Shown piece after piece: positions 9,852 to 31,258 of a DNA stretch of 32,000 nt. Both the position numbers and the translations under genes were made by a program. Source of the stretch: an archaeon (GTDB lineage: Archaea; Iainarchaeota; Iainarchaeia; Iainarchaeales; JANQMZ01); assembly GCA_028279805.1 (NCBI GenBank), contig JANQMZ010000007.1, positions 150,001 to 182,000 of the forward strand. The letters are read 5' to 3'. The notes under the pieces are model-generated. The model did no database searches, was not told the DNA's origin, and saw nothing but the letters and a program-made list of their open reading frames with translations. Numbering within the stretch: position 1 is the first letter of the stretch; every line of letters begins with the position of its first letter.

Positions 9852-11117
9852 TCATTTCTCTTCAATTGTTTCATTTCTCTGCGGACCAATTGAAACAATT
9901 TTTACAGGCAAACCTGTTTCTTTCTCAATAAACTCAATATATTCCAAAGCTTCTTTTGGCAACTCTTCCTTTTTTTTAAAAATATTATTTATTTCAAAGC
10001 CTTTGAATGTTTTGTAAACAGGTTCACATCCTTCAATACTCTGAATTGATGTAGGAGAATCTTTTAACATTTTTTTTCCGCACTTGTATTCAACGCATAC
10101 CTTTATTTCATCCAATCCTGACAAAACATCAAGCTTTGTTAACGCAATTTCAGTCAAGCCATTTAATCTTTTTGACGTTCTGATCATTGGCAAATCAAGC
10201 CAGCCAACCCGTCTTGGCCTGCCGGTTGTAGTGCCAAATTCTCCGCCTTTTTCCCTCAATTTTTCTCCCAAATCGTTTTTTAATTCTGTTAAAAAAGGCC
10301 CTTCCCCGACTCTTGTAGTGTAAGCTTTTACAACTCCTACAACGCTTTTAAGTTTTTGAAAACCTATTCCTGTGCCAATTGTTGCAGAACCTGCAACAGG
10401 ATTTGAACTTGTTACAAAAGGGTAAGTGCCAAAATTTATGTCCAGAAAAGAACCCTGCGCTCCTTCAAAAAAAACTTTTTTGTTTTTTTGCAAAGCTTCA
10501 TGCACTTCAATTGAAACATCTGAGACAAATTGTTTCAATTTTTCTCCAATCGGTGCATATTCTTCAAATATTTCTTCTTCTGTCGGCGTTTCAACTTCAA
10601 AAACTTTTTCCAAAATTTGTCTTTTCAAAGGATAATGTTTTTTCAAATTTGCCTTAAACCTTTTTTTGTCAATTAATTCTTCAAATCTTATTCCCGTTCT
10701 TGCAGCTTTATCAGAATAACAAGGCCCAATTCCCCTGCTCGTTGTTCCAATTTTTTCCTTTCCTTTACTTTTTTCACTTGAAGTGTCAAGCAAAATATGG
10801 TAAGGCATTATTATATGGCATCTTGGATCTACGCCCAGGTCAATTTTTCCGATTGTTTTTTGGGCTATTTCAATTTCTTTAAGCAAAACTTTGGGGTTAA
10901 CCACAACGCCTGCACCAATCAATGAACGTTTTTTGTCAACAACGCCTGACGGGAGCAAATGCAGCTTGAATGTCTTGTTGTCAACAATAACAGTATGCCC
11001 TGCATTGTCTCCTCCCTGAAATCTTACCACAATATCCGCTTTATCTGAAAAATAATCGGTTATTTTGCCTTTTCCTTCATCTCCCCACTGGGTTCCGACA
11101 ATTATTTTTCCGCCCAT
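9852..11117 (-). CDS. purA: Adenylosuccinate synthetase
   Basis: 421 aa. Motifs present are GTQWGDEGKGKITDY, GGDNAGHTV, IGTTSRGIGPCY and TTGRPRRVGWLD. Confidence 0.95.
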   Translation of the reverse strand: MGGKIIVGTQWGDEGKGKITDYFSDKADIVVRFQGGDNAGHTVIVDNKTFKLHLLPSGVVDKKRSLIGAGVVVNPKVLLKEIEIAQKTIGKIDLGVDPRCHIIMPYHILLDTSSEKSKGKEKIGTTSRGIGPCYSDKAARTGIRFEELIDKKRFKANLKKHYPLKRQILEKVFEVETPTEEEIFEEYAPIGEKLKQFVSDVSIEVHEALQKNKKVFFEGAQGSFLDINFGTYPFVTSSNPVAGSATIGTGIGFQKLKSVVGVVKAYTTRVGEGPFLTELKNDLGEKLREKGGEFGTTTGRPRRVGWLDLPMIRTSKRLNGLTEIALTKLDVLSGLDEIKVCVEYKCGKKMLKDSPTSIQSIEGCEPVYKTFKGFEINNIFKKKEELPKEALEYIEFIEKETGLPVKIVSIGPQRNETIEEK

Positions 11118-17006: not shown

Positions 17007-17032
17007 AAAATCAACCATTTGGTTGATTTTTT
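17007..17032. promoter_or_regulatory. Palindromic element A (AAAATCAACC-ATTT-GGTTGATTTT, then a T-run)
   Basis: It has 10-nt perfect inverted arms. It sits 2 nt after the uppS stop, so it could act as a hairpin-plus-T terminator, and about 30 nt upstream of the first paralog ATG. The arms recur at 21461-21500 and 22969-23008. Confidence 0.5.
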
Positions 17033-17062
17033 AAGCTTTTTGTTGCCATAAAGATAAACAGG

Positions 17063-17902
17063 ATGGCTAATCAGATACTATTACCACATTTATCCTGGAA
17101 TGAAAAATCAGCTAAGGGCACGATTATTGGTGTTTTAGCCAATGAATGGCCTCTTTCTACAAAAGAGGTTTTTAATCGGCTGAAAAAACGACATTCTTTC
17201 TCTGTTTCCTATCAAGCTGTTCACAAGGCTTTGAATGAGTTGGAAAAAGCTGAAATAATAAAAAAAGAAAACAAAAAGTATTCTTTGCACAGGAAATGGA
17301 TTGAAAACATTAAATTTTTTGCAAAAGATTTGGATTCAAAATATAAAAACAATACTAAAGCAACACCCTATTCTGAAGGAACTATTACGCTAACATTTGA
17401 TTCAATAGCAAATCTTGGAAGATTTATCATATACGATTATTTGCATGGAGATTATAATCCAAAAGGAAAGGATTGTGTTTGTTTGTGGAATCATTGCTGG
17501 CCTTTGATTGGTTTAAGTGATCAAGATCACCAAAAAATAGTTGATGCACTGGACATAGCTACACACTATTCTATAACAAAACAAAACACTTATTTGGATG
17601 ATTTGTTCACAGAAAGCTTAAACAAAATTGGTAAAAAATGCAAAACTGGAATTGACTATTTTGGATTAGGAGATTACATAATTGAAGGGGATTATGTTCT
17701 TCAAACAATTTATACTCCGAAATTTGCAAAATACTGGAACAAAGTTTACAAAACAACAAACAAAGAAACAATGGACATCGCAAAAATGTTCAAATTGTAT
17801 AACAAAAAAACAGAAATAACCGTAGTAATATTCAAAAACCAGCAATTTGCAGACAAATTAAGACAAGAAACTTTAAAACATTTTAGCGAGGGTTCAAAAT
17901 GA
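17063..17902 (+). CDS. Paralog 1 of 5: wHTH N-domain plus uncharacterised ~190-aa C-domain
   Basis: 279 aa. Family blocks present are NEWPLSTKEV...VSYQAVHKALNELEKAEII, WNHCWPLIG, GDYIIEGDYVLQTIY and EITVVIFKNQQFADKLRQETLKHF. Confidence 0.8.
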   Translation: MANQILLPHLSWNEKSAKGTIIGVLANEWPLSTKEVFNRLKKRHSFSVSYQAVHKALNELEKAEIIKKENKKYSLHRKWIENIKFFAKDLDSKYKNNTKATPYSEGTITLTFDSIANLGRFIIYDYLHGDYNPKGKDCVCLWNHCWPLIGLSDQDHQKIVDALDIATHYSITKQNTYLDDLFTESLNKIGKKCKTGIDYFGLGDYIIEGDYVLQTIYTPKFAKYWNKVYKTTNKETMDIAKMFKLYNKKTEITVVIFKNQQFADKLRQETLKHFSEGSK

Positions 17903-18720
17903 ATGGTGTTTCTGCAATTCCTCTTCTTTCCGATTCTTCAAAGAATGCAATTATTTCTTTACTTGTTGAAGAACAATCTTTAAAAGCAAAACAAATTCAT
18001 GAAAAACTGGAAAAAAATCATGGAATAAATGTAAGTTATCAAGCTGTCCACAAATCTTTAAGTGAATTGGAACAATCTGGTGTTGTTACTAAAACCAGTT
18101 CAGAATATAAAATTGACAAAAATTGGGTGGATAATTTAGAAATTTTTGCTAAAAATTTTTTGGAACAACATTATGGTTCATCTGATTTTGTTGATACGCA
18201 AACGATTGTAACAAATTCTTTGTACGAAACGGATATGGTTTTACTTGAAGCGGCTTTAAAAATGCTTGAAAACATGGAAGAAAAACCAATTCTTTGCATT
18301 CAGTGGCATCATGCATGGGTTCCATTGTTTTTAAATAAAAAAACTTATGCAGCCATAAAAGAGTTGATCCATAGAGTAGACTTGTATGATTTGATTAAAG
18401 GGGAAACTGTTGTAGACAAATGGTGTGCAAAATATTGGATAGAACGAGGTGTAAAATTAAAACTCGGAGTTGATTTGGGAAACAGTGCTGATCTAGTCAT
18501 CCTAGGGGATCATATTGTGCAAGTTTTTTATCCACAAGAACTAAGAAAAGAATTAGGTAAAGCATTTTCCAGCGTGAGTAAATTTTCAGAACTTAACACT
18601 GGTGAATTGTTCGAAAAAGTTTTCATGAAGCCAACAAAAATAACAATTGTCACAATGCGAAATAAACTTTTGGCTGAACAGTTGAGAAGAGAAACAATGA
18701 ATCATTTTAAAGGTGATTGA
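17899..18720 (+). CDS. Paralog 2 of 5
   Basis: 273 aa. Its start overlaps the paralog 1 stop (ATGA). Family blocks present are VSYQAVHKSLSELEQSGVV, WHHAWVPLFL, ADLVILGDHIVQVFY and KITIVTMRNKLLAEQLRRETMNHF. Confidence 0.8.
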   Translation: MNGVSAIPLLSDSSKNAIISLLVEEQSLKAKQIHEKLEKNHGINVSYQAVHKSLSELEQSGVVTKTSSEYKIDKNWVDNLEIFAKNFLEQHYGSSDFVDTQTIVTNSLYETDMVLLEAALKMLENMEEKPILCIQWHHAWVPLFLNKKTYAAIKELIHRVDLYDLIKGETVVDKWCAKYWIERGVKLKLGVDLGNSADLVILGDHIVQVFYPQELRKELGKAFSSVSKFSELNTGELFEKVFMKPTKITIVTMRNKLLAEQLRRETMNHFKGD

Positions 18721-19591
18721 ATTGCCTATTAATTTTACTGTCCCGGAATTGAGTGTTGATACTAATTCTTCAAAGGATACAATAATTTATGTGCTTTCAA
18801 ATGATTGGCCTTTAACTGTGACACAAATAAACAACAGAATATCTGATCTGTATGGCTTAAACATAAGTTATCAGGCGGTTCATAAAACATTGCTTCAACT
18901 GGAATTGGATAATATTGTTTTAAGAAAAGGAAAAAAATTTGAATTGAAAAAAAGCTGGATTAAAAATTTGAAAAATTTTGCAACAACACTTGAAAACAGG
19001 TACATTTTAAACGAAAGAAAAAAAAACATAAAATATAAAGGAAAACCAATTACATTAAAATTTGACGACATGAATGATTTTTTCAGAGAATTTTTATCAT
19101 TACTTGGAAGCAATCAATTAATTCAAAACAATAATAGGGCAATATATGCAATTCAAACACATGGATGGTTTCCATTAGGATTCAGATTCAGCGATTACAA
19201 TTTATTATCAAAACTGGTTAAATCAAATAAAAAAGGAGTTTGGTGTGTGATACAAAAAGAACTACCTTTTGATAAAGTTGTTGCACAAACATATAAAAGA
19301 GCTGGGTTAAATGTTTTAACAGGAATCAAAGACGACGCCTTCAAACACGGAGTTATAGCCCAGGGTGATTTTGTTTTTGACATTAACTTTTCACCTGCAA
19401 CAACAGAATTAGTGGAAGAGCTTTACTCAAAAACTCAAAATTTAAGCGTTTACTTCAGAGAATTCACAAAACAATTCACAGAAAAAAAAGATGTTAACAT
19501 AAAAATTAAAATAAGAAAAAATCCGTCTTACGCAAAATTGTTACAAAAACAAGTGTTGTCTCATTTTAAGGAGGAAGAACAAAATGATTAG
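18713..19591 (+). CDS. Paralog 3 of 5
   Basis: 292 aa from the GTG at 18713. The TTG at 18722, preceded by AAGGTGA, is an equally good start. Family blocks present are NDWPLTVTQI...ISYQAVHKTLLQLE, QTHGWFPLGF, HGVIAQGDFVFDINF and NIKIKIRKNPSYAKLLQKQVLSHF. Confidence 0.8.
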   Translation: MIELPINFTVPELSVDTNSSKDTIIYVLSNDWPLTVTQINNRISDLYGLNISYQAVHKTLLQLELDNIVLRKGKKFELKKSWIKNLKNFATTLENRYILNERKKNIKYKGKPITLKFDDMNDFFREFLSLLGSNQLIQNNNRAIYAIQTHGWFPLGFRFSDYNLLSKLVKSNKKGVWCVIQKELPFDKVVAQTYKRAGLNVLTGIKDDAFKHGVIAQGDFVFDINFSPATTELVEELYSKTQNLSVYFREFTKQFTEKKDVNIKIKIRKNPSYAKLLQKQVLSHFKEEEQND

Positions 19592-20468
19592 TGATACTTC
19601 TTCACATGGTTACTCAAACCCTTCTTCAACTAAGAATGCTATTGTTTCAACTTTATCTGAGAAATGGCCGCTTTCTGCAAAAGAGATACATTCCTCAATA
19701 ATTAATGCTTATAATATAACCGTGTCTTATCAAGCAATTCATAAAAAATTAATTGAATTAGAAAAAGAAACTATTATTGAAAAAAACGGAAAAAATTATT
19801 CTTTAAACAAAATTTGGATTTCAAACAACAAAGAATTTTTTAAAAAATTAACATCAAAATATGAAAACACTGTTGGAAAATATGAAATTGATCCAGATTT
19901 TGAAGGCACTATAAAATTAGATTTTCCAGATTTAACACTTTTACCTGTTACAATTGCCAGTCTTATTGGAAAAAAAGTTTTTATAGGAAATGGTCCAAAC
20001 ATTCTCACCGGATTTATAGATCATGCTTTGTGGCCATTAAGATTTAATTTTATGGATTTTGAAACTTTAAGAAGAATGTGTGTTAATATGGATGAAGCTT
20101 ATGCTATTATTGGAAATAATCAGCCATTTGATCAGTGGATAGCAAAACAATATCTAAGAGGCGGGTTTGATAAAGTCAAACTTGGAGTTAACTTTACAGG
20201 TAATGGAGATTATTTAATCGTTCACGGAGACTCTATAATTCAAATAACCATGAAAGAAGAAACCAAAAAATTTTTGGATAATATTTACGAAAAAATCTAT
20301 AATCTGTCAGATTTATACAAATATTATTTAAAAGCAAGAAATAAACAAATACCTGAATCAACAGAGGTTTTAATAACAAAAAATCCTGATTTGGCAAGTT
20401 TTTTGAGAAAGAAAATGATAGATATTTTCAAAGAGGACATTAAGATGGATAATAAGCTCCAAGCTTGA
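19584..20468 (+). CDS. Paralog 4 of 5
   Basis: 294 aa. Its start overlaps the paralog 3 stop by 8 nt (ATGATTAG), and AGGAGG lies upstream. Family blocks present are EKWPLSAKEI...VSYQAIHKKLIELEKETII, IDHALWPLRF, GDYLIVHGDSIIQITM and EVLITKNPDLASFLRKKMIDIF. Confidence 0.8.
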   Translation: MISDTSSHGYSNPSSTKNAIVSTLSEKWPLSAKEIHSSIINAYNITVSYQAIHKKLIELEKETIIEKNGKNYSLNKIWISNNKEFFKKLTSKYENTVGKYEIDPDFEGTIKLDFPDLTLLPVTIASLIGKKVFIGNGPNILTGFIDHALWPLRFNFMDFETLRRMCVNMDEAYAIIGNNQPFDQWIAKQYLRGGFDKVKLGVNFTGNGDYLIVHGDSIIQITMKEETKKFLDNIYEKIYNLSDLYKYYLKARNKQIPESTEVLITKNPDLASFLRKKMIDIFKEDIKMDNKLQA

Positions 20469-20493
20469 TGACTATTAATTTTAAGTGATTTTT

Positions 20494-21312
20494 ATGAGTT
20501 ATCAGGATTTGGAAACAGTTGGAGGAAAAAATTCAACTAAAAATTTAATTATAAATGCTTTAAGATTTAAGAACGATTTTACTACAAAACAGATTTATTT
20601 TTTTTTAAAAAAAGAATTTGGTTTAAATTCCTCTTATCAATCCGTTCACAAAGCATTGAAAGAACTTTCAAGTGAAAAAATTGTTTTTAAAAAAAACAAA
20701 AAATATTTTTTAAACCGGGAATGGATTCAAAATAACAAAATGTTTTTTGAAGAATTAGCTGATAAAAAAGTGGATTTAACACGACTTGAAAATCAAACAA
20801 TTAGCTTGTCTTTCAATTCTTATCATGAATTTATGGATAAAATGCTTGACATTTTTGCAAAAGAAAGAGAATTATTTCCAAACAATTTATGCGTAACTTA
20901 TCAAAATCATTTATACTGGACTATGAGTTTATCCAAAAATCAGTATAACAAGCTTAAAATTTTAGGTTCTCATGGAGGCTATATTGCCTGCAATGGAAAT
21001 TCTTTTTTTGACAAAGTTTTGGCAACAATATACAAAAAAGTGGGCTATGATGTGAAAACAGGTGTAAATTATTCAAACAATTTTGATTTTGTTGTATATG
21101 GAAACATAATTCATCAAATATTTTTTTCAGATAAACAAAAAAAAGAAATTAATATAATTTCAAAAAAATCAAAAAAAACTGAAGATATCTTTGAACAAGG
21201 ATTTCATGAAAAACTTTTTGAAAAACCCGGAAAAATAAATGTAGTTATTTTCAAAAATAAAGAATTGGCAGAACAACTGACAAATGATGTTTTAAAACAG
21301 GTTAAAAATTGA
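20494..21312 (+). CDS. Paralog 5 of 5 (most divergent)
   Basis: 272 aa from the ATG at 20494 (the ORF track uses the GTG at 20485). Family blocks present are SSYQSVHKALKELSSEKIV, YQNHLYWTMSL, FDFVVYGNIIHQIFF and INVVIFKNKELAEQLTNDVLKQV. Confidence 0.75.
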   Translation: MSYQDLETVGGKNSTKNLIINALRFKNDFTTKQIYFFLKKEFGLNSSYQSVHKALKELSSEKIVFKKNKKYFLNREWIQNNKMFFEELADKKVDLTRLENQTISLSFNSYHEFMDKMLDIFAKERELFPNNLCVTYQNHLYWTMSLSKNQYNKLKILGSHGGYIACNGNSFFDKVLATIYKKVGYDVKTGVNYSNNFDFVVYGNIIHQIFFSDKQKKEINIISKKSKKTEDIFEQGFHEKLFEKPGKINVVIFKNKELAEQLTNDVLKQVKN

Positions 21313-21460
21313 AAGAGGCCTCAATCTGAAGCCTCCTCTGCCTTTCAAGGGGTACCAACTCTCTCCTTGTAAAGTGGATAGGGCGCCCCTGTTGGAGCGC
21401 CGGAGCAGGCATCTCTCGCACGAGAGTAAACGCCTGAAATAACTCTGACGCGAGTAGTAA
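21313..21460. ncRNA. GC-rich, highly structured RNA candidate of unknown class; strand unresolved
   Basis: This stretch is about half G+C by eye, against AT-rich flanks. Nested helices can be read directly: 21315-19/21331-35, 21342-50/21365-74, 21382-88/21394-401, and 21406-10/21432-36 enclosing CTCTC-GCAC-GAGAG. Hairpin-plus-T-run terminators exist for either orientation. Only implausible Arg/Leu-rich ORFs cross it. Confidence 0.5.
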
Positions 21461-21500
21461 TATACCTTTGGTTGAAAAAAAATCAACCAAATAGTTGATT
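21461..21500. promoter_or_regulatory. Palindromic element B (TTTGGTTGA-A7-TCAACCAAA-TA-GTTGATT)
   Basis: It contains three TCAACC/GGTTGA half-sites. Its reverse complement aligns with element C at 30 of 40 positions by hand. It abuts a TATA-like GGTATATTA on the minus strand and a T8 run (21503-21511) on the plus strand. Confidence 0.5.
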
Positions 21501-21584
21501 ATTGTTTTTTTAGGATAAGAATATCTTGCCATCGGTTTTCATACAATCTGGAAAAAAGTATTTATTGAACAAAAAAAGCTATGG

Positions 21585-21617
21585 TTTAAAGCATAGAATT
21601 TAAAGCTTTTTTAAAGC
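21585..21617 (+). promoter_or_regulatory. Three direct copies of TTTAAAGC (two within the palindrome AAAGCTTT) upstream of the DsbA-like gene
   Basis: The copies start at 21585, 21599 and 21610, which is 43-68 nt upstream of the TTG start at 21653. They are TATA-like (TTTAAA) and could be a promoter or operator. Confidence 0.3.
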
Positions 21618-21652
21618 TTTAATGTTAGTACTTTTGTTATAGAGGTGATTGA

Positions 21653-22408
21653 TTGGGTAAAAAAAGACCAAAAAAAACAACAAGTCGTTCAAATAATTCA
21701 GGCAATTCTAATACTTATGTTATTGCCGGAGCAATTGTTCTGGCCGGAATAATAATCGGAGGGGCAGTATTTTTAACAAGCACTCCGGGAACAACTCTGC
21801 CTCCAAGCGGAAACAATGGAAATGGCGGAGGAGGGCATGGAAATGATGCCACTGTTTCAATGAAAGCTTTGCTTGAATCAGAATCAGCTGCAACTTTGGG
21901 AAACGAAGATGCACCGGTTGTTTTGATTGAATTTTCAGATTATGAATGTCCTTTCTGCAGGCAATGGTCTAATCAGTCAAAAGCACAGTTGGAAGCAGAA
22001 TATATTGACACAGGAAAAGTTTTGTTTGTATTCAAAGATTTCCCACTTACAAGAATTCATCCGTTTGCGGTAACCGCAGCTCATTCAGCACGATGTGCAG
22101 GAGAACAAGGCAAATACTGGGAAATGCATGACGCAATTTTTGATTTGTTTGGGCAAAACAATTTTTCACAGGAAACAGTTGAACAAACAGCTCAGGATTT
22201 GGAATTAAATGTAGCAGACTTTCAGGCATGCAATGAATCAGCAAAATTTTTGTCAAACATTCAGCAAAACTTTGATGAAGGAGCAAGCAATGGCATAACA
22301 GGCACGCCGGGATTTTTAATCGGAACACCTAACGGAACTGCAAGACTTATTTCAGGAGCACAGCCTTACTCTGTTTTCAAACAAGCAATTGATTCACTAT
22401 TGGCATAA
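21653..22408 (+). CDS. Membrane-anchored DsbA-family thiol:disulfide oxidoreductase
   Basis: It has a TTG start 4 nt after GAGGTGA. An N-terminal basic segment and TM helix (YVIAGAIVLAGIIIGGAVFL) are followed by a Gly/Asn linker. The thioredoxin fold carries the active site EFSDYECPFCRQW and a C-terminal GTPGFLIG. Confidence 0.8.
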   Translation: MGKKRPKKTTSRSNNSGNSNTYVIAGAIVLAGIIIGGAVFLTSTPGTTLPPSGNNGNGGGGHGNDATVSMKALLESESAATLGNEDAPVVLIEFSDYECPFCRQWSNQSKAQLEAEYIDTGKVLFVFKDFPLTRIHPFAVTAAHSARCAGEQGKYWEMHDAIFDLFGQNNFSQETVEQTAQDLELNVADFQACNESAKFLSNIQQNFDEGASNGITGTPGFLIGTPNGTARLISGAQPYSVFKQAIDSLLA

Positions 22409-22415
22409 ATTCGTT

Positions 22416-22452
22416 AAAAGGCGGTAAAACGCCTTTTATTTCTTGTTTTTTT
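22416..22452 (+). terminator. Hairpin plus T-run after the DsbA-like gene
   Basis: AAAAGGCG-GTAAAA-CGCCTTTT forms an 8-bp stem and is followed by ATTTCTTGTTTTTTT. Confidence 0.6.
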
Positions 22453-22529
22453 GGAAAAAATGTGGGAAAAGCTTTTTAAATGCTGAAAAAAATAATTGAT
22501 TAAAATAAAACCTTTTGGAGGTGTCGTCA

Positions 22530-22559
22530 TTGTTAGGCGGTGAAGGATGTGGCTGCTAA
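22530..22559 (+). CDS. Candidate 9-codon micro-ORF (MLGGEGCGC)
   Basis: The best ribosome-binding site in the window, GGAGGTG (22517-22523), lies 6 nt before the TTG at 22530. The Cys codons and the stop fall inside the following terminator-like hairpin. This call is speculative. Confidence 0.2.
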   Translation: MLGGEGCGC

Positions 22560-22589
22560 ACCTTGTTTAGCATCCCTTTTTATTTTTTT
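22545..22589 (+). terminator. Terminator/attenuator-like hairpin plus T-run upstream of the glutaredoxin-like gene
   Basis: A GGAT...ATCC lower stem and a GCTAAAC-CTT-GTTTAGC upper stem (7 bp) are followed by CTTTTTATTTTTTT. The structure ends 29 nt before the ATG at 22618. Confidence 0.5.
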
Positions 22590-22617
22590 ACATTATAATT
22601 TTTGAGAGGTAATTTTT

Positions 22618-22854
22618 ATGGAGCATGAAGTTAAAATTTATTCAACACCAACTTGTTCTTGGTGTGCAAAAGCAAAAGAATTCTTCAAAGAAAACAACGT
22701 TAAATATGAAGAATATGACGTTGCAATGGATGAAGAAAAAAGAAATGAAATGGTTGAAAAATCAGGACAATTAGGCGTGCCGGTAATCGATGTTGACGGC
22801 AACATAATTGTAGGATTTGACCAGCCAAGACTAACAGAATTATTGGACCTGTAA
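22618..22854 (+). CDS. Glutaredoxin-like small redox protein (NrdH/YruB-like)
   Basis: 78 aa. Motifs present are KIYSTPTCSWCAKAKEFF (CxxC), GVPVIDVDG and IVGFD. Confidence 0.8.
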   Translation: MEHEVKIYSTPTCSWCAKAKEFFKENNVKYEEYDVAMDEEKRNEMVEKSGQLGVPVIDVDGNIIVGFDQPRLTELLDL

Positions 22855-22968
22855 GCAACTAACGCTTGCACCCATTGCCAATTTTTTTTAAACTAATTTT
22901 AAAATCTTCCACTTTTGTTCCCCTTAAACCGAACAAAATCACAACTTTTTTATTTTTTTAAAAACATG

Positions 22969-23008
22969 AATCAACTAAATGGTTGATAAAAAATCAACCA
23001 AACGTATT
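22969..23008. promoter_or_regulatory. Palindromic element C (AATCAAC-TAAAT-GGTTGAT-A5-ATCAACCAAA), immediately upstream of a TATA-like GTATTTAAG
   Basis: It has three TCAACC/GGTTGA half-sites in the same order and spacing as the reverse complement of element B. The TATA-like box lies about 50 nt upstream of the ATG at 23058, and a GGGGGAGTGG ribosome-binding site lies between them. Confidence 0.5.
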
Positions 23009-23057
23009 TAAGACAATGTATGGTAATCCTACAAGCAGGGGGGAGTGGAATGAAAAA

Positions 23058-25454
23058 ATGAAAAGGTTAATCCTGACTTTAATTTGTTTAATTTTATTGT
23101 TTTCAAGTGTTTTTGGATGGTGGAATGCAAGCTGGGAGTTCAGGCAGCCTTTAACCCTTTCAACTTCAACTCTTTCCAATGATGTTTTAAACGACCATTC
23201 TATTTTGGTTAAAGTTGATTCAACAAACACGGATTTTTGGAACAGTGTTAAAAGTGATGGAAAAGATGTTCGTTTTGTTGCTGCAAACGATTTAACTGAA
23301 TTAACTTATCATATTGAAAAATTTGATTATTTTGGACAGGAAATGATTGCATGGGTTAAGGTAACCGATACTTTCAGTTCTGTTTCCAATACAAACATTT
23401 TCATGTATTATGGCAATCCCAACGCTTTTGGAAATGAAAATGAAGCCGGAACTTATCCTGCTTATTATAAAGCTGTTTACAATTTCAATGAAAATTCCGG
23501 AACAATTTTGGACAAAACTTCCAATAACAATGATTCAATTTTACAGGAAATTAATGCTTACCAGGTTAACGGCAAAATGAATGGAGCTGTTCAAACAATA
23601 GCTTCATCAAACCATGCCACTGTTCCCGATTCAAATTCTTTGGATTTGGGTTCAAACGGTTCCATTTCTTTTTGGATAAATTTTGGTTCAGATTTTCCTT
23701 CAGGGCATTCCTCTGACATTTATTTGATTGAAAAAGACGGTCCCCCTTTATCTTCAAACATTTTGATTTTTCAAAAAAGCAACGGAAAACTTGGATTTTT
23801 GCTTGGAAACGCATATGATTATTCAAGCAAAAGTTTGTGGACCGGCGGAACCTGGCATAACATAATTTTAACATGGGACGGCGTGTCCAAAAAAGCTTAT
23901 GTAAATGCTTCAATAAACGATGGCTTTGATGTGGCAAGCGGGGATTCCTGGAAAACAAATCTTGCAGATTTAACAATTTTTAATAACAGTAATAAAAACA
24001 GAAGCGGTTCGGCGGACCATGATGAAATAAGATTTTATAATATTGCATTAAATTCTGATGAAGTAAGCCTGTTATACAAATCTGAAAACAATAGCCTGAT
24101 TTCTTTTGGAAACCAGGAATCTTCAGGCGGAAGTGCACCTCCCTCTGGTGACCAAAACATTTGGGTTACATTTGTTTCCGATTCAGGAAGCACAACAGTT
24201 GATGTTCCGGAAGACACTTTAACTGTTGCAGGAGGAGATGGTATAAGCACAAGCATTTCCGGTGACACTTTAACAATTACCAATACAGCTTTAAGTGCAG
24301 GTGTTGCAGGAATTTTTGCCGGGCTTGGAATTGACCTTAATGCCAACACCGGTGACGTTTTGGTTTCAGTCAGCAACATTGTTGCATTGTTGTCAGGCAG
24401 GGCAGGAGGACAACACTTGTATGGCGGCATTAATGCCGGTGAAAATTTAACTCTTGAAAGCACTGCTAATGCCAGCAAAGGCTTAATCAATTTATTAGAT
24501 AATACAAGAATTGGTTGTAATGGTGATGCCAACAGTGCATCCCTTGTAACCTGTGGCGAACTAAAATCAGAGTCAGACACAGGGGGCTTAACCGTTTCTC
24601 CAAATGCTGCCGGTGCTGGAAATCCGGGAATTTTTTCTTATCTGGGCAACAGTCTGCATTTTGGTGCCAATAATTCCACATCCGGCTTGGTTTTGAATGC
24701 TGATAATGATGTTGGAATTGGCGGCATTGGTGCTTTTGCTGATGCAAAGCTTCATGTTGTTGAGGATAGCGTCAACAAACTTGTTTTGAAGGCTGTTAAG
24801 AATGTTGCAAATTCTTTTGTTCCTGTTGTTCAGATGTCGCAAAGCAATTCAAACGGCAACACTGAGGTTTTGGAACTGGTGCAGAATGATTCTGATGAAC
24901 CTTTTGTTGAATTTGTTGGCTCTAAAGGCAATGCAGCTTCAATTGACACTAACATTGATAAAAGACTTGCTTACATGTTAAAAACCACAATTGAATCCAA
25001 CAGCATTGAAGAATCTGTTTATTTGCCTGTTTATGGGGACGGGCATGAGGATCCTGACAATGTCATTGAGTCAGAGGTTTCTCAAAGCAGCGGCTTTTCA
25101 ACAAATTCTTTGGTTTTTGTTGATGTTACAAATCCTGCCGGCTTTGATTTAAACATTCCTAAAAAGAGCACGGTTATTCTGAATGCAATGGTTACCCATT
25201 TCAATAATGTTGGCGGAACAAATAATTTTTTCAGGTGGAAGCTTGGAAATAATGAATCTGTCAGCGTTGCACAGGAAACAATTCCACAGTTTAACCAGGT
25301 TACCACGACTTATGTTCAGGCAATTTTCAAAAACATTGAACCCGGCATTTACAATGCCAAACTTCAAATGAAAGTAAGCGGCGGAACAGGCATAATCGCC
25401 TTTTCCACCAACGATTCAGTAGCCCAGTTAACAGCGGTAACATATGAAGAATAA
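23058..25454 (+). CDS. Large secreted protein: signal peptide, DUF2341, LamG/concanavalin-like domain, and a shared ~430-aa C-terminal module
   Basis: The ATG at 23058 gives the signal MKRLILTLICLILLFSSVFG. WWNASWEFRQPLTL...DGKDVRFV...AWVKV...IFMYYGNPNA matches the DUF2341 pattern. A LamG-like region follows (ISFWINF...WHNIILTWDG...DEIRFYN). The C-terminal module (24162-25454) is homologous to 29909-31192. Confidence 0.85.
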   Translation: MKRLILTLICLILLFSSVFGWWNASWEFRQPLTLSTSTLSNDVLNDHSILVKVDSTNTDFWNSVKSDGKDVRFVAANDLTELTYHIEKFDYFGQEMIAWVKVTDTFSSVSNTNIFMYYGNPNAFGNENEAGTYPAYYKAVYNFNENSGTILDKTSNNNDSILQEINAYQVNGKMNGAVQTIASSNHATVPDSNSLDLGSNGSISFWINFGSDFPSGHSSDIYLIEKDGPPLSSNILIFQKSNGKLGFLLGNAYDYSSKSLWTGGTWHNIILTWDGVSKKAYVNASINDGFDVASGDSWKTNLADLTIFNNSNKNRSGSADHDEIRFYNIALNSDEVSLLYKSENNSLISFGNQESSGGSAPPSGDQNIWVTFVSDSGSTTVDVPEDTLTVAGGDGISTSISGDTLTITNTALSAGVAGIFAGLGIDLNANTGDVLVSVSNIVALLSGRAGGQHLYGGINAGENLTLESTANASKGLINLLDNTRIGCNGDANSASLVTCGELKSESDTGGLTVSPNAAGAGNPGIFSYLGNSLHFGANNSTSGLVLNADNDVGIGGIGAFADAKLHVVEDSVNKLVLKAVKNVANSFVPVVQMSQSNSNGNTEVLELVQNDSDEPFVEFVGSKGNAASIDTNIDKRLAYMLKTTIESNSIEESVYLPVYGDGHEDPDNVIESEVSQSSGFSTNSLVFVDVTNPAGFDLNIPKKSTVILNAMVTHFNNVGGTNNFFRWKLGNNESVSVAQETIPQFNQVTTTYVQAIFKNIEPGIYNAKLQMKVSGGTGIIAFSTNDSVAQLTAVTYEE

Positions 25455-25487
25455 TGGAGAATTAAAAAAAATAGGAGTTGATAGGGA

Positions 25488-26243
25488 ATGAAAAAAAATA
25501 TTTTGCTAATATTGATTTTGATTTTACTAAGTTCTTTTTCATTCGCATCTGAAGATATTTCGGAATCTATGAAAAAACCAAGTGAACCGATAGAAATTAA
25601 GCAGATAGTTAAGGAAACAGGTCCTTTGCCGGAGCATATTGACCCTAATTTCACTTTGGAACAAATTCATAGAATGCTAGAAGGATTTTTGGCGGATAGA
25701 GGAATCATCAGCGATGAAACCGTTTTTTATGATTTGGGTCTTAACGAGATAAATTTAATTGATTCTATAAAACTTGAACGTTCTTTTGATGAGTCGGAAT
25801 ATATAATGCGTCCGATATATTTGTTTGTTTTTGTAATAAAGAATGATAATGCAAATTCTGTTTCTTATGAATTATTTTCAGGGGATTTTGATGGTTTGAC
25901 TGGAGAAAATATTCGTTTTGATAAACCTATAAAAACAATCTTTTACAACTTGAAAACAAAGGATGATGTAGTTGAATTAATGAAAGATAGATTTGGTTTT
26001 TCTGAAAACGAAATAAAAGTCAGTTTGGTTTATTATACATCTAGTTGGAGAGTGAAAGTTGATGCTGGTAGCTATGAAGTTTATGATAATGGGTTAATAG
26101 ATGGTCCTTATAAGGCTCAAACAACTGGTTCCTCAAGCACTTCGGTAAGACAAGCACCGCGAACAGTAGCATCATATTATCCGTTAATTTTTGGATTTAT
26201 AATAATTGTAATAGGTTTGTTTTTTCTGGTGAGAAAAAAATGA
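25488..26243 (+). CDS. Small bitopic membrane protein with two PepSY-like repeats (signal peptide plus C-terminal TM anchor)
   Basis: It has the signal MKKNILLILILILLSSFSFA and the C-terminal anchor YYPLIFGFIIIVIGLFFLVRKK. Two segments end in PepSY-like motifs (YELFSGDFDGLTGENI and WRVKVDAGSYEVYDNGLI). Its stop overlaps the protease start (ATGA at 26240-26243). Confidence 0.6.
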   Translation: MKKNILLILILILLSSFSFASEDISESMKKPSEPIEIKQIVKETGPLPEHIDPNFTLEQIHRMLEGFLADRGIISDETVFYDLGLNEINLIDSIKLERSFDESEYIMRPIYLFVFVIKNDNANSVSYELFSGDFDGLTGENIRFDKPIKTIFYNLKTKDDVVELMKDRFGFSENEIKVSLVYYTSSWRVKVDAGSYEVYDNGLIDGPYKAQTTGSSSTSVRQAPRTVASYYPLIFGFIIIVIGLFFLVRKK

Positions 26244-29200
26244 AAAAGCATTATGTATTTTTTTTTCTTGCACTAATTTTTTCCTTTGCTTTAGTTGGAT
26301 CTGACATAAATAATTCAGAAAATAACACTTACAAGCTTCAAGAAAGAAGCTATTTGACAATGCTTTCACCTAGCAATGAAATGGAAATGCATCCCGACCC
26401 TTCCTTCGAAATAAAATTATTAAATGGATTTTTTATCCCTAAAGCTGGTGTTGGGATAGATATAACCAATATTGAAAAAGAAAATACTGGAGAAGAAATT
26501 TATGCTTTGGTTCAATTTCAAAGAGGCTTGATTGATTCTGATGCCCATGATTTTCTTGAGAATCAAAATTCTTTAGAATTGGGCCGTGTTCCTGACAATA
26601 CCTATGTTATCAAAATCCCAATCAACAATCTGAAAAATTTTTTTGAAAGTTATCTGATTAGATGGATCAATATTCTTCAACCAGAACAGAAAATCCATCC
26701 GAATATAGCTGAACAAGATGAATCCTTGGAAGTTTTGGTCACAGCATTTGAAAACATGACTCAAGATCAAATAGAAAAAATTTCTGTTTTGTCAGAAGAA
26801 GTGATTTTTGATGGAAAAGACTCTGAATCAATTCTTGTGAAAGCCACTTATTCAAATATTTTTAAAATTGCCAAGTTGAACTTTATTCAATGGATTTCAC
26901 CTAGAGGAACAGGTAAAACATCTCTAGACAACAGTGCAAGAGTTATCTCAGTTCCTTATGTCTGGTCTCAGGGAAATACTGCTTCCGATGTCACTGTTGG
27001 GATAATAGATTCTGGACTTGATTTTGATCATCCACACTTTTTTAATCCAACTATTCCAATCTACAAATCTAAGGATTGGGTTGATGGGGGAATGAATCCA
27101 GAGGATGAACAGGTGCATGGTACCCTTATGGCTGGAACTATTTCTGGATCTGGTAGTAGTTCTTCAAGCTCAAGATATTATAAAGGCATTTCAAATAGAG
27201 CAGCTTTGACAATAGAAAAGGCTTTCGATAGTCATGATGACTGGGTAGCACCACATCCTGCTTTAAATCCTGTTTGGAATTGGATATTGGATCCTAATCA
27301 AAATTTTAGTTTTAATGATAATCAAGATGCAGATATAATAAACAATAGTTGGGCACATTATTTTACTTATGGTGCCTATGAGCAAGCGTCTCAAAAAGTT
27401 GATAAAGTTGTTAGAGGAGAATTATCAAATGGAAAAAAAATTGTAGTTGTTTTTGGTTCAGGAAATGATCATGCAATTTCTAATGGGGCTGGAGTTGAAC
27501 CCCCCGCCACTGCAAAAAATGCTATAACTGTTGGTGCCAGTGCTGATTTCAGATCTTCAACTGAAGAATCTCAATATTCTCAGGATTTTTGTCCGCCTGA
27601 TTCACGCTGTAACTACGACAGTTTGAATGGATATGTAATGGAATATAGTGGAAGGGGCACTCTTGATGGAAGAGTCAAACCAGACATTTTAGCTCCAGGA
27701 TCCACCACTTTTGGTCCAGTAGCTCAAACTACAGTATATGCTTCTGGTGATGGAACAAGTGCTGCTGCTGCGCATGTTTCTGCTGTAGCTGCTCAAATCT
27801 TGCAAGCATATTCAACGGCATCACCTGCCTTGGTGAAGGCTCTTCTTGTCAACAATGCAGTGGGAGCTGGAACAACAGACAACAAGAATTATGATGAAGG
27901 ATGGGGGAGACTAAGCGCATTTGAATCAATTTACTGGTTAACGGATGATTACACCGCCACGTTCAACGAATTTAATCTTGGTGGACCAGGTACAGGATTA
28001 AGCAATGAAGGATATCTCGAAAGATATGTTCCTGCAGATGCAGACAGAATTGTTGTTACAATGGCTTATGATGATGAACCGTCATTTCTTTTGGGTTCTG
28101 TTCCAACTCTTAAAAACAATATTGATTTGTATTTGCAGAAACCCAATGGGTCTCAGTTGTATGTTAACGATGATTCTGTGAATAATGTTGAAAAATATGT
28201 GATTGATGATCCTGATGAAGGGAATTGGAGATTTTATGTAAAATTTGTTAATCCACAATGGTTAAGTACTCAAGATGCGGCGATGAACCTAAAAATTATT
28301 AGGAAAACTCAGCCATCTTCAACAGATATTTTGAGTACTTCTGGTCCAATTAATGTTGATCAAGGAGAAAATTTCAAAATTACTGCGAATGTTCATGCTG
28401 TTGGATTGGTTAACTATGATATGTGGACAAGAATAGATGTTCCAAATGGACTAACCTTGACTTTGCCTGGTTTTTATGACAGTATGGATGGGGATAAAAA
28501 TGTGCTAGGTGATATCCCTGCAGATGTTTTTGTGAATACTGGTGATTGGGTTATAAGAGCTGATGATCCTGGGACTTATAATGTTAGAATTTATGCACAG
28601 GGAAAAAGAAAAGATGGATCAAATATTTTTGAAGTTGATACAACAGTTGTGAATGTAAATCCAACAGAAAAAGACCCTGGAGATTTATGTTCTTCACATT
28701 CTGAGTGTGGAACTGGTTATTGTGAGGGTTCTGCTTCAAATCCTGCAAGATGTTGTGTTGCGGTTCCTCCACAAGATGGTTGGTATGGAGGAGGCAATAC
28801 GAGTACAGCGCAATGTGGTGTTGTTGATAATGATGCTGCATCTATTTACAGGGATTATTATTGTGATGCTTCCGGTTCTGCTCAAATAGAGCCAACAGAT
28901 GCCCAGGATTGTGATTCAAGTGATGGTTGGTATGGTGGTGGAAATACTGCTGGTTGTGGTGATGACCCTTCGTCAATTTGGAGAGATTATTATGTAACAA
29001 CCAATGACAACACTTGCACTTATACTGAATCTTGTAATGGAAACAATTCTTTTGATTGTGATGCCCAGGATGCTTGTGCTCCTTATTGCAGCGGTAATAC
29101 TGCAATTTTTGGAACGGATTATTATGTTGTTGAAAATACCAACACGTGCACTTCAATTGAAGAGAGTGAGGATTGTACTGTAAAAGATTCAACTGATTCT

Positions 29201-31192
29201 GATGGTGGAAACATTCCTTTAACTTTTGGAAGTGTTTTGGATTATGATGCTTGTTCTAATGGTGGCTGTATTGGAACCCAGCATGATGATGTTTGCACAA
29301 CTTCAACTGATTTAACTGAATTTTTTGATCAGGGAACTTCTTTTTCATCTCAGGCTTATTCTTGTAATGATTTTGAAACATTGGCTGTTGATCCGGATGG
29401 GGATGATCCAAGTGTTAATGCTACTTGTATTGGTGGAACAAGTGCAACTTGTTCTGTTGGAAAATTTGATGCAGTTGTTCAGGCAAACGGAACAGACCAA
29501 TGCCAGGGAACTTGTGGTTTGGGTGAAAATTCCTGTTCCTTTGTAGAATTTTATGTGGCAGATTCAGCTGATGCTTGCACCGGTTTGGATTCTTGTGCCC
29601 AAAAAACTTATGATGCTGATACAGCTGAAAACACTTGCAATACTTGTCTGGGTTCAAATCATTGGAATATTGGCGGAGAGGTTTCATCATCCTGTTGTGG
29701 AGATGATGCAAGTGAATACAAGAATACAAGAGTTTGTGTTGTTAATGTTTGTTCTACTGATAATGGTGATGGTGCTTGTTGCCTTTCAAACAATAGTTGT
29801 GTTTACAATAACACTTGTTATGCGGATGGTTTCAGGGGTGATGTTGATTTGGATACAAACCAGGAATTTTGTAATAATGGCATCTGGTCTGAGCCTCCGA
29901 AAGATGTTTGGAAAACTTTTTTGGCTGATTCAGGGAGTGCAAGTGCTGATATTACAGAGGATGTTTTAAGTGTTTTAAGCGGTGCAGGAATTTCTACAAG
30001 CATTGTTGGTGATGTTTTAACTGTTACCAATACTGTGCTGAATGGAGAAGACTTGGATGGAGTTAGTGCTTTGTTTGGCGGAATAGGAATTGACGTTAAT
30101 CCAAACAAAGGCGATGTAACTGTTTCAATTGCTGATGTTGTTGCTTTGCTGTCCGGGAGAAGCGGCGGACAAACCTTAAGCGGGGGAATTAATGCTGGTG
30201 AAAACCTGAATCTGGAAAGCACCAGTGATTCAACAAAAGGCCTGATTAATTTGTTGGATGATGTGAGGGTTGATTGTTCTGGTGATGCAAACGTTGCCGA
30301 TTTGACTGCTTGCGGAACTTTGCGATGGGAATCAGCTCAGAGTGGTTTGATAGTTTCTCCTGTTCTTGAAGGTGCTGGCAAACCGGGAATAATCACTTAT
30401 TTGGATAATGAATTGTATTTGGGAGCAAATTCTGCAACCGGTTTAATCATTAATGAGTTTAATGATGTTATTGTTGGCAGTGCAACTCCTTTAACCGGTT
30501 CAAAGCTTAATGTTATTGATAATTTGTCAAATAAAATTGCTTTAAAATTAGCCAAAGACATTTCAAATGCTGTTGTTCCTGTTGTTCAAATCAGGCAGGA
30601 TAACCCGAATGCCGGTTCAAATGTTTTGAATTTGGTGCAAAATGATTCAGATGAATCCTTTATGAAATTCACTGGTTCAAAAGGAAATGTTTTGTCAATT
30701 GATTCTAATTTGGATAAAAAAATAACTTACATGCTTAAAACGGAAATGGAGTCCGGTGTAAGTGAAAATGTTTTTGTTCCTGTTTTTGTTGATGCTGCTG
30801 ATTCAAAAAATGTTACTGGTTTTAGTAATGCAACCGGAAACTTTTCAACTGTTTCAACTCAATTTGTTGATGTAACCAATCCGGCTGATTTTAATATTAC
30901 TTTGACAAAGAAAAGCACTGTTATTTTGACTGCAATGATTCCTCACACCAATACTGTAACCAATTCCTTTAATCGTTTCAGATGGGTTTTTGGAAATAAT
31001 ACTTCTTCAAGCATGTCTCAAAAAATGCATGGTGCTGTTTATACAACCAGAGTTCCCGGAATTTTTAAAAATGTTGAACCGGGAACTTATAATGTAAAAC
31101 TGCAAATGGAAGTAAGTGCAGGAACGGGAATAATTGGTTACACTCCTGGCAATTCTGTTGCTCAATTGATTGCAGTAAGCTATGAGGAATAA
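26240..31192 (+). CDS. Giant secreted subtilisin-like (S8) protease with propeptide-like N-region, P-domain-like and beta-sandwich regions, a Cys-rich repeat region, and the shared C-terminal module
   Basis: It has the signal MKKHYVFFFLALIFSFALVG. The catalytic triad contexts are VGIIDSGLD (Asp codon at 27008), HGTLMAGTI (His codon at 27115) and GDGTSAAAAHVSAVAAQ (Ser codon at 27758). NIDLYL..P.G...NNVEKYVI...GNWRFYV resembles a P-domain. About 38 Cys fall in 28672-29908. The module at 29909-31192 is homologous to 24162-25454. Confidence 0.9.
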   Translation: MKKHYVFFFLALIFSFALVGSDINNSENNTYKLQERSYLTMLSPSNEMEMHPDPSFEIKLLNGFFIPKAGVGIDITNIEKENTGEEIYALVQFQRGLIDSDAHDFLENQNSLELGRVPDNTYVIKIPINNLKNFFESYLIRWINILQPEQKIHPNIAEQDESLEVLVTAFENMTQDQIEKISVLSEEVIFDGKDSESILVKATYSNIFKIAKLNFIQWISPRGTGKTSLDNSARVISVPYVWSQGNTASDVTVGIIDSGLDFDHPHFFNPTIPIYKSKDWVDGGMNPEDEQVHGTLMAGTISGSGSSSSSSRYYKGISNRAALTIEKAFDSHDDWVAPHPALNPVWNWILDPNQNFSFNDNQDADIINNSWAHYFTYGAYEQASQKVDKVVRGELSNGKKIVVVFGSGNDHAISNGAGVEPPATAKNAITVGASADFRSSTEESQYSQDFCPPDSRCNYDSLNGYVMEYSGRGTLDGRVKPDILAPGSTTFGPVAQTTVYASGDGTSAAAAHVSAVAAQILQAYSTASPALVKALLVNNAVGAGTTDNKNYDEGWGRLSAFESIYWLTDDYTATFNEFNLGGPGTGLSNEGYLERYVPADADRIVVTMAYDDEPSFLLGSVPTLKNNIDLYLQKPNGSQLYVNDDSVNNVEKYVIDDPDEGNWRFYVKFVNPQWLSTQDAAMNLKIIRKTQPSSTDILSTSGPINVDQGENFKITANVHAVGLVNYDMWTRIDVPNGLTLTLPGFYDSMDGDKNVLGDIPADVFVNTGDWVIRADDPGTYNVRIYAQGKRKDGSNIFEVDTTVVNVNPTEKDPGDLCSSHSECGTGYCEGSASNPARCCVAVPPQDGWYGGGNTSTAQCGVVDNDAASIYRDYYCDASGSAQIEPTDAQDCDSSDGWYGGGNTAGCGDDPSSIWRDYYVTTNDNTCTYTESCNGNNSFDCDAQDACAPYCSGNTAIFGTDYYVVENTNTCTSIEESEDCTVKDSTDSDGGNIPLTFGSVLDYDACSNGGCIGTQHDDVCTTSTDLTEFFDQGTSFSSQAYSCNDFETLAVDPDGDDPSVNATCIGGTSATCSVGKFDAVVQANGTDQCQGTCGLGENSCSFVEFYVADSADACTGLDSCAQKTYDADTAENTCNTCLGSNHWNIGGEVSSSCCGDDASEYKNTRVCVVNVCSTDNGDGACCLSNNSCVYNNTCYADGFRGDVDLDTNQEFCNNGIWSEPPKDVWKTFLADSGSASADITEDVLSVLSGAGISTSIVGDVLTVTNTVLNGEDLDGVSALFGGIGIDVNPNKGDVTVSIADVVALLSGRSGGQTLSGGINAGENLNLESTSDSTKGLINLLDDVRVDCSGDANVADLTACGTLRWESAQSGLIVSPVLEGAGKPGIITYLDNELYLGANSATGLIINEFNDVIVGSATPLTGSKLNVIDNLSNKIALKLAKDISNAVVPVVQIRQDNPNAGSNVLNLVQNDSDESFMKFTGSKGNVLSIDSNLDKKITYMLKTEMESGVSENVFVPVFVDAADSKNVTGFSNATGNFSTVSTQFVDVTNPADFNITLTKKSTVILTAMIPHTNTVTNSFNRFRWVFGNNTSSSMSQKMHGAVYTTRVPGIFKNVEPGTYNVKLQMEVSAGTGIIGYTPGNSVAQLIAVSYEE

Positions 31193-31258
31193 TAAACTTG
31201 TTTGGTTTTAACCGAACAAAATACTATTATTTAAAAACTTCAAAAACAGGGTTTTAGT

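Follow-up and report, generated by a model that had tools for sequence, protein, structure and literature searches.

A stretch of 32 000 nucleotides from an archaeon of the Iainarchaeales (hereafter the window; contig JANQMZ010000007.1, positions 150 001–182 000) carries three palindromic TCAACC/GGTTGA elements, A, B and C, which lie beside TATA-like boxes in front of an array of five winged-helix paralogs, a GC-rich RNA and a cluster of surface-protein genes, respectively. We find that B and C, together with a further copy (D) elsewhere in the genome, are in all likelihood copies of an operator–promoter cassette of ∼45 bp, and that A represents a second conserved operator type. Judged from sequence, there is a strong case that these sites serve a specific transcription factor. 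The overall explanation that we favor, in which the cassettes and the A-type operators are read by the TrmB-like paralogs of the array, is probable as a whole; taken by itself, the proposal that in this genome the sites are read by the paralog family is an even call. The genome that contains the window (G000; 876 kb, 33.7% G+C) is archaeal, encoding both TFB and TBP. The elements were first noticed in a preliminary description made from the letters of the window, the claims of which are taken up below where the evidence bears on them. Related genomes, contigs, loci, families and genera are denoted by our own handles (G, C, L, f and g, respectively) where they need to be told apart.

Architecture of the elements

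Element A (17007–17030; no strand assigned) has the sequence AAAATCAACCATTTGGTTGATTTT, a perfect palindrome with 11-bp arms around a TT dinucleotide (AAAATCAACCA-TT-TGGTTGATTTT), and starts 2 nt past the stop codon of a prenyltransferase gene. The sequences quoted for A, B and C in the preliminary description proved to be correct, the only slip being the end coordinate of A (17032 for 17030), which adds two T residues. In this operator type the palindrome abuts the TATA box: the TATA-like box of the paralog array (TTTTTTAAG, 17027–17035, plus strand) is of the type that is generic for the genome, and the first ATG of the array (17063) lies 28 nt past its end. The transcript of the array is predicted to be leaderless or nearly so.

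Cassette B lies on the minus strand and comprises, in its reading direction, a palindrome TCAACTATTTGGTTGA formed by half-sites 1 and 2 (21483–21498), a third half-site TCAACC (GGTTGA on the plus strand; 21470–21475) 7 bp after the palindrome and, 5 bp farther on, a TATA box TATATTAC (21457–21464); the intervening 5 bp (AAAGG) resemble a TFB-recognition element (BRE). Cassette C repeats this order on the plus strand, with the palindrome TCAACTAAATGGTTGA at 22971–22986, the third half-site TCAACC at 22994–22999 and, again after 5 bp (AAACG), the TATA box TATTTAAG at 23005–23012, ∼40–50 nt before the ATG codons at 23051 and 23061. All three TATA-like boxes are where the preliminary description had placed them. 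Compared with C (22969–23008), the reverse complement of B (21461–21500) has the same base at 30 of 40 positions, and eight of the ten mismatches are A/T swaps in the two spacers; our recount reproduced the figures given earlier.

The pattern TCAACY-N(2–8)-GGTTGA gives four strand-matches at three sites in the window, compared with 0.06 expected from dinucleotide shuffles, none of which reached four. The lone hexamer GGTTGA is not enriched in the window (21 occurrences, 17.4 expected), in keeping with the earlier remark that isolated half-sites are unremarkable; the two coding half-sites cited as examples (13547 and 16676) exist, but each begins one base earlier, at 13546 and 16675. In the whole genome TCAAC-N6-GTTGA occurs six times, with ∼0.9 expected, and among these six sites the Y/R extension is confined to A–D, all four of which precede genes or the RNA block. 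The exact compound pattern TCAAC-N6-GTTGA-N7-TCAACC has only three copies in the 876 kb, namely B, C and D. Site D (C9:727213) is 555 kb from the window, equals B letter for letter from the last half-site of the palindrome through the TATA box, and precedes the gene of a secreted protein (650 aa, no Pfam domain). A search of the whole genome for near-misses to the cassette (up to three mismatches) found none that bears a TATA box; the matches without one numbered eight, compared with six for the reversed pattern.

The layout common to B, C and D is a palindrome, 7 A/T-rich bp, TCAACC, AAA[G/C]G and TAT[A/T]T[A/T]A, whereas A has a palindrome without a third half-site and its TTTTTTAAG box is directly adjacent. 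The treatment of A, B and C as one recurring element was thus right for B and C, which are alike, but not for A, which has a different architecture. The suggestion of a local regulon did not survive, as D is distant from the window and the cassette is found across the order.

The TATA boxes of the two operator types also differ. In the 363 upstream regions of G000 the commonest 8-mers are TTTTTTAA, TTTTTAAA and TTTTAAAA, and the generic TATA box of the genome is TTTTTAAA/TTTTAAAA, often preceded by AAAGC. The cassette-type box TATATTAA is present in only eight of the 363 regions; given this rarity, the cassette appears to bring its own variety of TATA box, whereas A uses the generic one. The apparent generic promoter of G000 reads AAAGC followed by TTTTTTAAA, with AAAGCTTT and TTTTTAAA among the commonest upstream 8-mers. 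At 21560–21620 of the window, two copies of this generic promoter stand ahead of a DsbA-like gene.

Conservation of the cassette

A pattern scan of 196 genomes of the same order returned 150 matches to the cassette in 78 genomes (about 40%; 21 of 55 among the high-quality genomes), with 1–7 copies per genome. The reversed control pattern had no match in any of the 196, and the cassette was absent from an outgroup (0/19) of genomes that belong to the same class but to other orders. In a BLAST comparison of the B region with 40 relatives, one per family, 15 genomes gave matches, often several each, which covered only the ∼45-nt element and not the RNA. Metagenome contigs with the cassette number more than 120. 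No description of the motif was found in the literature.

The second spacer is 7 bp in nearly all of the 150 matches. Among the 110 unique copies the palindrome has the consensus AA-TCAACY-N4-RGTTGA-TT, with A/T flanks at every half-site, and the TATATTAA box always lies 5 bp past the third half-site, each of its positions being 90–96% conserved. The BRE-like stretch has the consensus [G/A][C/A]AGG, with A at BRE position 31 in 82% of the copies. Conservation extends to positions outside the search pattern, and a CC.C..AACAG stretch is conserved ahead of the expected start site. The octamer and the BRE-like stretch would form a putative archaeal core promoter, from which the start sites are predicted, and the genes begin 20–140 nt downstream. 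Similarity between copies ends within about 60 bp. The observation, made initially on B and C, that half-sites and spacing are kept while the spacers drift therefore holds over 78 genomes with a fixed distance to the TATA box; the proposed check on relatives also showed A-type palindromes in front of homologous regulator genes and arrays, as described below.

In 12 cases the cassette is double and symmetric and lies between divergent genes, in the order TATA, half-site, N7, palindrome, N7, half-site, TATA; where the flanks were read, either outer half-site is oriented toward the TATA box on its own side. Four alternating half-sites separated by N7, N4 and N7 are present in such copies (L005, L036, L043, L053–L057, L075, L082 and L084; e.g. 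G005:C177:430–471), a geometry suggestive of a tetramer or of dimers bound in a row along the DNA. In genus g35 (L146 in G047 and L147 in G035) all three half-sites of the cassette read TAAACC. From this concerted change and from the symmetric double cassettes we infer that one sequence-specific protein reads every half-site. A search for degenerate cassettes with a second base other than C gave nine matches, compared with ten for the control, and only the TAAACC/TTAACC cases before c1 genes or their leader RNAs (see below) are meaningful.

These features were also weighed against the view that the cassette is a strong or specialized core promoter which is read by TBP and TFB with no dedicated regulator. 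The near-invariant TATATTAA box, the BRE-like stretch and the conserved region before the start do travel together, as that view would have it. However, TBP and TFB contact ∼15 bp and not a 29-bp array of three oriented half-sites upstream of the BRE, element A combines the same palindrome with an ordinary TATA box, and the joint change of all three half-sites in g35 points to a single sequence-specific reader. G000 has one TFB gene and one full two-repeat TBP (C9:46820–47341), so that the cassette is unlikely to be the target of an alternative general factor. A purely basal role is in our judgment very unlikely. As a side observation, a 97-aa frame at G000:C9:676670–676870 matches one TBP repeat exactly at the Pfam cut-off (22.9 bits).

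Predicted targets of the cassette

The first reading frame was read after 107 cassettes, and in 46 cases it encodes a member of one of three winged-helix classes: c1 (∼31 cases; 90–150 aa, with a GC-rich leader of ∼100 nt in front), c2 (nine cases; ∼170 aa, Pfam TrmB above the cut-off at 27.4 bits) and c3 (six cases; 'EWPLS' type, 100–130 aa). Class c3 and the N-terminal domain of the five paralogs of the window are of one family. On metagenome contigs, some of them from the same species, 35 of 69 first frames are regulators (19 c1, 14 c2 and two c3). Among the non-regulator first frames, 30 of 61 have an N-terminal hydrophobic segment, compared with 21.6% of the frames of G000 (odds ratio 3.5, p = 6e-6), by a crude test, given that data from related genomes lack independence. 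For the most part the secreted targets show no relationship to one another; what recurs is a predicted class of target and not an orthologous gene.

In G000 the outputs would be a surface-protein operon (C), the 650-aa secreted protein (D) and a structured RNA of 130 nt (B). The probable target operon of C (23051–31693, plus strand) encodes a secreted DUF2341/LamG protein and proteins of 251, 1650 and 144 aa, with gaps of no more than 66 nt; the 1650-aa protein is a putative S8 protease according to the preliminary description.

Further targets in the relatives are radical-SAM enzymes, U32 peptidases, an aldolase and, twice, tyrosine integrases. The two integrase genes are related to each other and are driven by two cassettes of a single genome (L020, G092:C8; L047, G092:C9); they may represent integrated elements that use the regulator of the host. 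This pair, and the presence of multiple copies, speak for a small mobile element of which the repeats would be the ends or the attachment sites. Such an origin fits poorly with the remaining data: copies share only ∼45 bp and have unrelated flanks, their position is always promoter-like, they are stable over an order at low copy number, and a search of 2.9 million viral contigs gave no match to the cassette. We give this explanation practically no credence.

The regulator array and its probable operator

The five paralogs downstream of A (17063–21312, plus strand) are the candidate readers of the half-sites. They are long members of class c3, each consisting of a winged helix, a coiled coil and a phospholipase D (PLD)-like C-terminal domain, and are 27–31% identical to paralog 1. 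Seven residues (Ser49, Tyr50, Gln51, His54, Lys55, Leu57 and Leu60) are invariant in all five, and the block with the predicted recognition helix, SYQxxHK, is the best conserved part both within the array and across genomes. A PDB sequence search with paralog 1 returned nothing useful. An AlphaFold (AF2) model of paralog 1 (pLDDT 70, pTM 0.56) was matched by Foldseek over its full length (275–293 columns) to seven chains of TrmBL2, the top entries being 5bpd, 5bpi and 5box, with E values of 8e-10 to 3e-8, a probability of 1.0 and a sequence identity of 13–16%. The C-terminal half of the model also matches PLD-like nucleases (NucT, Zucchini and Nuc). As modeled, the paralogs are TrmB-like in architecture.

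Class c3 was found in 129 of the 196 genomes (321 matches, ∼1.6 per Mb) and is missing from two families (0/22 and 0/7), neither of which has the cassette. Near cassettes it is enriched ∼60-fold (29 frames in 300 kb, with a further 27 in metagenome loci that total 335 kb). It has two forms: a short form directly behind cassettes, and a long form of ∼290 aa in tandem arrays as in the window. Upstream of c3 genes, TCAAC-N6-GTTGA is present exactly in 8 of 40 regions and with at most one mismatch in 13 of 40, compared with a background of 0.18% and 1.1%, respectively, of 250-nt windows of G000. The layout of A, with a palindrome TCAACC-N4-RGTTGA followed by a TTTTTAAAGG-like TATA box, stands before c3 genes or arrays in eight genomes (G028, G172, G134, G117, G097, G040, G019 and G001), where the palindrome is 30–39 nt from the ATG (36 nt at A). 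Since relatives have the same layout before their c3 genes, A appears to be a conserved operator–promoter of regulator arrays. Families without the exact cassette have variant palindromes (TTAAC..GTTAA or TAAACC..GGTTAA) at the same place before c3.

These A-type sites bear on the earlier caveat that A and B might be terminators. The hairpins and T-runs behind it are real: A folds at −14.1 kcal/mol close behind the prenyltransferase stop codon and is followed by six T residues, and B has a hairpin and a T-run on the plus strand. Termination is nevertheless not the main explanation, because what is conserved is sequence with a fixed distance to the TATA box. Over the 78 genomes the half-sites keep their sequence and not merely their pairing, the spacers vary with no compensatory changes, and the third half-site and the TATA box stand at fixed distances. 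In addition, the 12 symmetric double promoters lie between divergent genes, the A-type sites of relatives precede c3 whatever lies upstream, and C and D do not closely follow the end of a gene. That A and B, or A alone, are simply hairpin terminators with an incidental likeness to C is thus highly improbable. There is a small chance that A, as an operator, doubles as the terminator of the upstream gene.

The preliminary description had named the adjacent winged-helix paralogs as the obvious regulators, and they are still the best candidates, both from the enrichment of c3 near cassettes and from the TrmBL2-like fold of paralog 1. G000 has no c1- or c2-type gene, which leaves the paralogs as the only cassette-linked regulators in this genome; its only canonical TrmB (C9:499806) has no cassette. 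The reading helix of c3 is invariant, whereas c1 has no invariant column and a variable helix, so that the c3 helix is the better fit to an invariant half-site. In genus g35 the single c3 protein has VSYQAVQKYS instead of VSYQAVHKAL, i.e. a His-to-Gln change in the recognition helix; together with the TAAACC half-sites of this genus, this is suggestive of covariation between half-site and helix.

Several points weigh against the paralogs as readers. The covariation concerns one genus, and other paralogs have Tyr or Gln at the same position beside TCAACC sites. Pfam TrmB (PF01978) matches remain below the cut-off of 25.6 bits (17.3 bits for paralog 2 and 14.7 bits for a short relative, with no match for paralog 1), and the confidence of the paralog 1 model is moderate, as its pLDDT indicates. 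Of the 78 genomes with a cassette, 15 yielded no c3. Their mean completeness is ∼81%, which by itself predicts about that many misses, but one of the c3-less genomes (G004) is 94% complete, its best match being weak (E = 0.0085, 16 bits). Class c3 is also present in families without the exact cassette (11 of 13 genomes in f28 and seven of nine in f2). Analogy is also the sole argument for the sign of regulation. Finally, c1 is single-copy and lies directly behind the cassette in nearly every genome that has it, a tighter link in the relatives than that of c3, and could be the real autoregulated reader there.

This last point leads to a different assignment, in which the sites are true operator–promoters and the paralogs no more than targets. 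In the relatives the part of reader would then fall to c1, or to an unlinked factor common to all genomes with a cassette, and in G000 to some other regulator. The position of c1, which is found in most families of the order behind both cassette and leader, gives the classic picture of autoregulation. Variant cassettes (TAAACC in G099, and TTAACC/TGAACC in G176 and G024) also precede c1, and a model of c1 shows a winged helix with a C-terminal helix, for which the best TM-score (0.70–0.72) is to the DNA-binding domain of TrmBL2. Furthermore, c3 was not found in G128 or in the nearly complete G004. Set against this, G000, G011 and genus g35 have perfect cassettes and no c1, the frame being missing from the cassette–leader locus of G000 and G011 themselves. 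The recognition helices of c1, which lacks even near-invariant columns, differ between subfamilies although the half-site does not, and its isoelectric points range from 4.7 to 11, compared with ∼9.5 for c2 and c3. No unlinked candidate reader was identified. Phyletic profiles do not separate the two classes, as c3 was found in 63 and convincing c1, by hand tally, in ∼62 of the 78 cassette genomes, and the shortfall of each is about what a genome completeness of 80–85% predicts. We regard this assignment as possible but doubtful, and retain the c3 paralogs as the preferred readers in G000.

The GC-rich RNA and the probable loss of a c1 gene

The GC-rich RNA of ∼130 nt driven by cassette B is placed at 21305–21435 on the minus strand, with the start expected ∼26 nt after the TATA box, at ∼21435, and the end estimated from a T-run at 21304–21308. 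The block folds to −59 kcal/mol, with a z-score of −3.2. In Rfam the window and 20 related loci had no match at the gathering threshold (only chance-level matches, E > 1), and tRNA scans of the block and of the 20 loci found nothing.

In relatives the same position is occupied by the c1 leader. This begins with a 5′ helix that closes on a conserved GCCUGCUC box and has a variable hairpin inside, continues with a GC-rich hairpin that varies in sequence between genomes, and ends with an A-rich stretch, a ribosome site and the c1 start. The G000 RNA has a GCCTGCTC box at the matching place (15 copies in the genome, both strands) and a GAGAGTTGG motif (five copies) that is shared with other leaders. 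Leaders with no reading frame are also found in G011, G047, G035 and G083; they have the GAGAGTTGG motif near their 3′ part and keep the layout, while their hairpin sequences differ. The GCCUGCUC box is likewise carried by the frame-less RNAs of G000 and G083. No c1 reading frame follows the G000 RNA, and no c1 homolog was found anywhere in G000.

Neither an nhmmer profile of 63 c1 leaders nor a covariance model matched the G000 RNA. The covariance model was sequence-only, as RNAalifold found no consensus pairs on the MAFFT alignment, and it matched only the frame-less RNA of G083 (E = 5e-5). With the profiles negative, the relationship is argued from the shared promoter, the two rare motifs and synteny, and the GC-rich RNA is probably a c1 leader that was left, with its promoter, after loss of the reading frame. 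The link between this RNA and element B in the preliminary description is therefore borne out in that cassette B points into it, but the block most likely served as leader to a small regulator gene that has since been lost. That four families have retained a frame-less leader hints at an independent function, and the c1 leader may have given rise to a small RNA that stands alone. A possible pairing of the conserved TCCC after the TATA box with the ribosome-binding site was considered and dropped, as these bases lie upstream of the expected start site.

A c1 gene with its cassette adjoins a long-c3 array at G028:C73, G176:C38, G024:C3, G178:C115, G003:C40 and G135:C65 and in G029, and in G091:C9 c1 is convergent on the end of the array, as in the window. 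The neighbors can be divergent, convergent or in the same direction, and form a conserved gene pair in many families.

Comparison with known systems

The closest known system is the Thermococcales glycolytic motif (TGM) with its regulator TrmBL1/Tgr, together with the TrmB operators of Thermococcales. The TGM, TATCAC-N5-GTGATA, is read by TrmBL1/Tgr, and TrmB operators are known from Pyrococcus and Thermococcus; for TrmBL1/Tgr, the position of the site relative to the BRE and TATA box decides between activation and repression. Like these operators, the elements described here have a palindrome suited to a dimeric winged-helix regulator of the TrmB family, which is the predicted reader. The placement of the site varies in a similar way, being upstream of the BRE in the cassettes and abutting the TATA box at A, and the regulator genes are within their own regulon, as is the case for TGM/TrmBL1. 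The differences are considerable. The half-site is TCAACY and the spacer N4 is one base shorter, so that neither sequence nor spacing agrees with the TGM; a third half-site at 7 bp is obligatory and is followed at 5 bp by a TATATTAA box of its own, the 45 bp traveling as a unit; the targets are regulators and surface proteins and not sugar metabolism; and there are up to five or more tandem paralogs with one recognition helix. The paralogs also score below the Pfam TrmB cut-off.

In overall fold the paralogs resemble TrmBL2, the chromatin-like protein of Thermococcales, which they match over the full length in the winged helix, the long helix and the C-terminal domain. TrmBL2 is abundant and single-copy and binds DNA with no sequence specificity. 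By comparison, the half-site described here is sharply defined and has very few sites per genome, which would imply specific recognition. A further parallel concerns activators that act next to the core promoter: Ptr2 of Methanocaldococcus and TFB-RF1 of Pyrococcus occupy sites immediately upstream of the BRE, from which they recruit TBP or TFB. The half-sites of the cassette are likewise directly upstream of the BRE and TATA box at a fixed distance. Ptr2 and TFB-RF1 belong to unrelated protein families (Lrp-type and others), however, and no grammar of three half-sites has been described for them.

Additional features of the window

The adenylosuccinate synthetase encoded at 9852–11117 (minus strand) is ∼50% identical to its best matches outside its own lineage, which are from Thermoplasmata, a Thorarchaeota genome and many Bacillota, in a search that may leave out its own and near genomes. 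The gene may be of foreign origin.

Proposed mechanism and implications

In the mechanism that we propose, dimers or higher oligomers of the paralogs would read the TCAACC half-sites through the shared helix SYQxxHK. At A, the bound protein would cover the BRE/TATA edge and shut off its own operon. At the cassettes, the protein would sit just upstream of the BRE-like AAAGG and the strong TATA box and help TFB and TBP to load, by analogy with TrmBL1/Tgr and other archaeal activators. On this analogy the cassette would rather activate than repress, although repression has close to an even chance. The C-terminal PLD-like domains of the paralogs differ, and different signals could consequently be fed into the same sites. 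In a wider and more speculative form, which we consider unlikely, the system would be a self-contained, order-wide module in which paralogs with one helix but divergent PLD-like sensor domains compete, or mix as hetero-oligomers, on the half-site grammar; it would switch surface and secreted promoters and a cascade of small regulators, perhaps on contact with the host, with a leader RNA that has an independent function and is kept in at least four families.

The order-wide census of the cassette, its target classes, the A-type operator, the TrmBL2-like fold of the paralogs and the probable origin of the GC-rich RNA are contributed by the present analysis. To our knowledge, almost nothing is known of how DPANN archaea, which have yet to be cultivated alone, regulate their genes. 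The cassette is not surprising in principle; for these archaea it is a rare and cleanly testable regulon. A complete and sharply defined cis-element is now at hand, and the regulon predicted for G000 is very small, comprising a surface-protein operon, a secreted protein, an RNA and the regulator array. With named candidate regulators of TrmB-like fold, it would be the first regulon of the group to be directly testable, using short DNA and proteins of soluble size. Its tie to secreted and surface proteins points to a role in controlling the cell surface, a matter central to the symbiosis in which these organisms are proposed to live.

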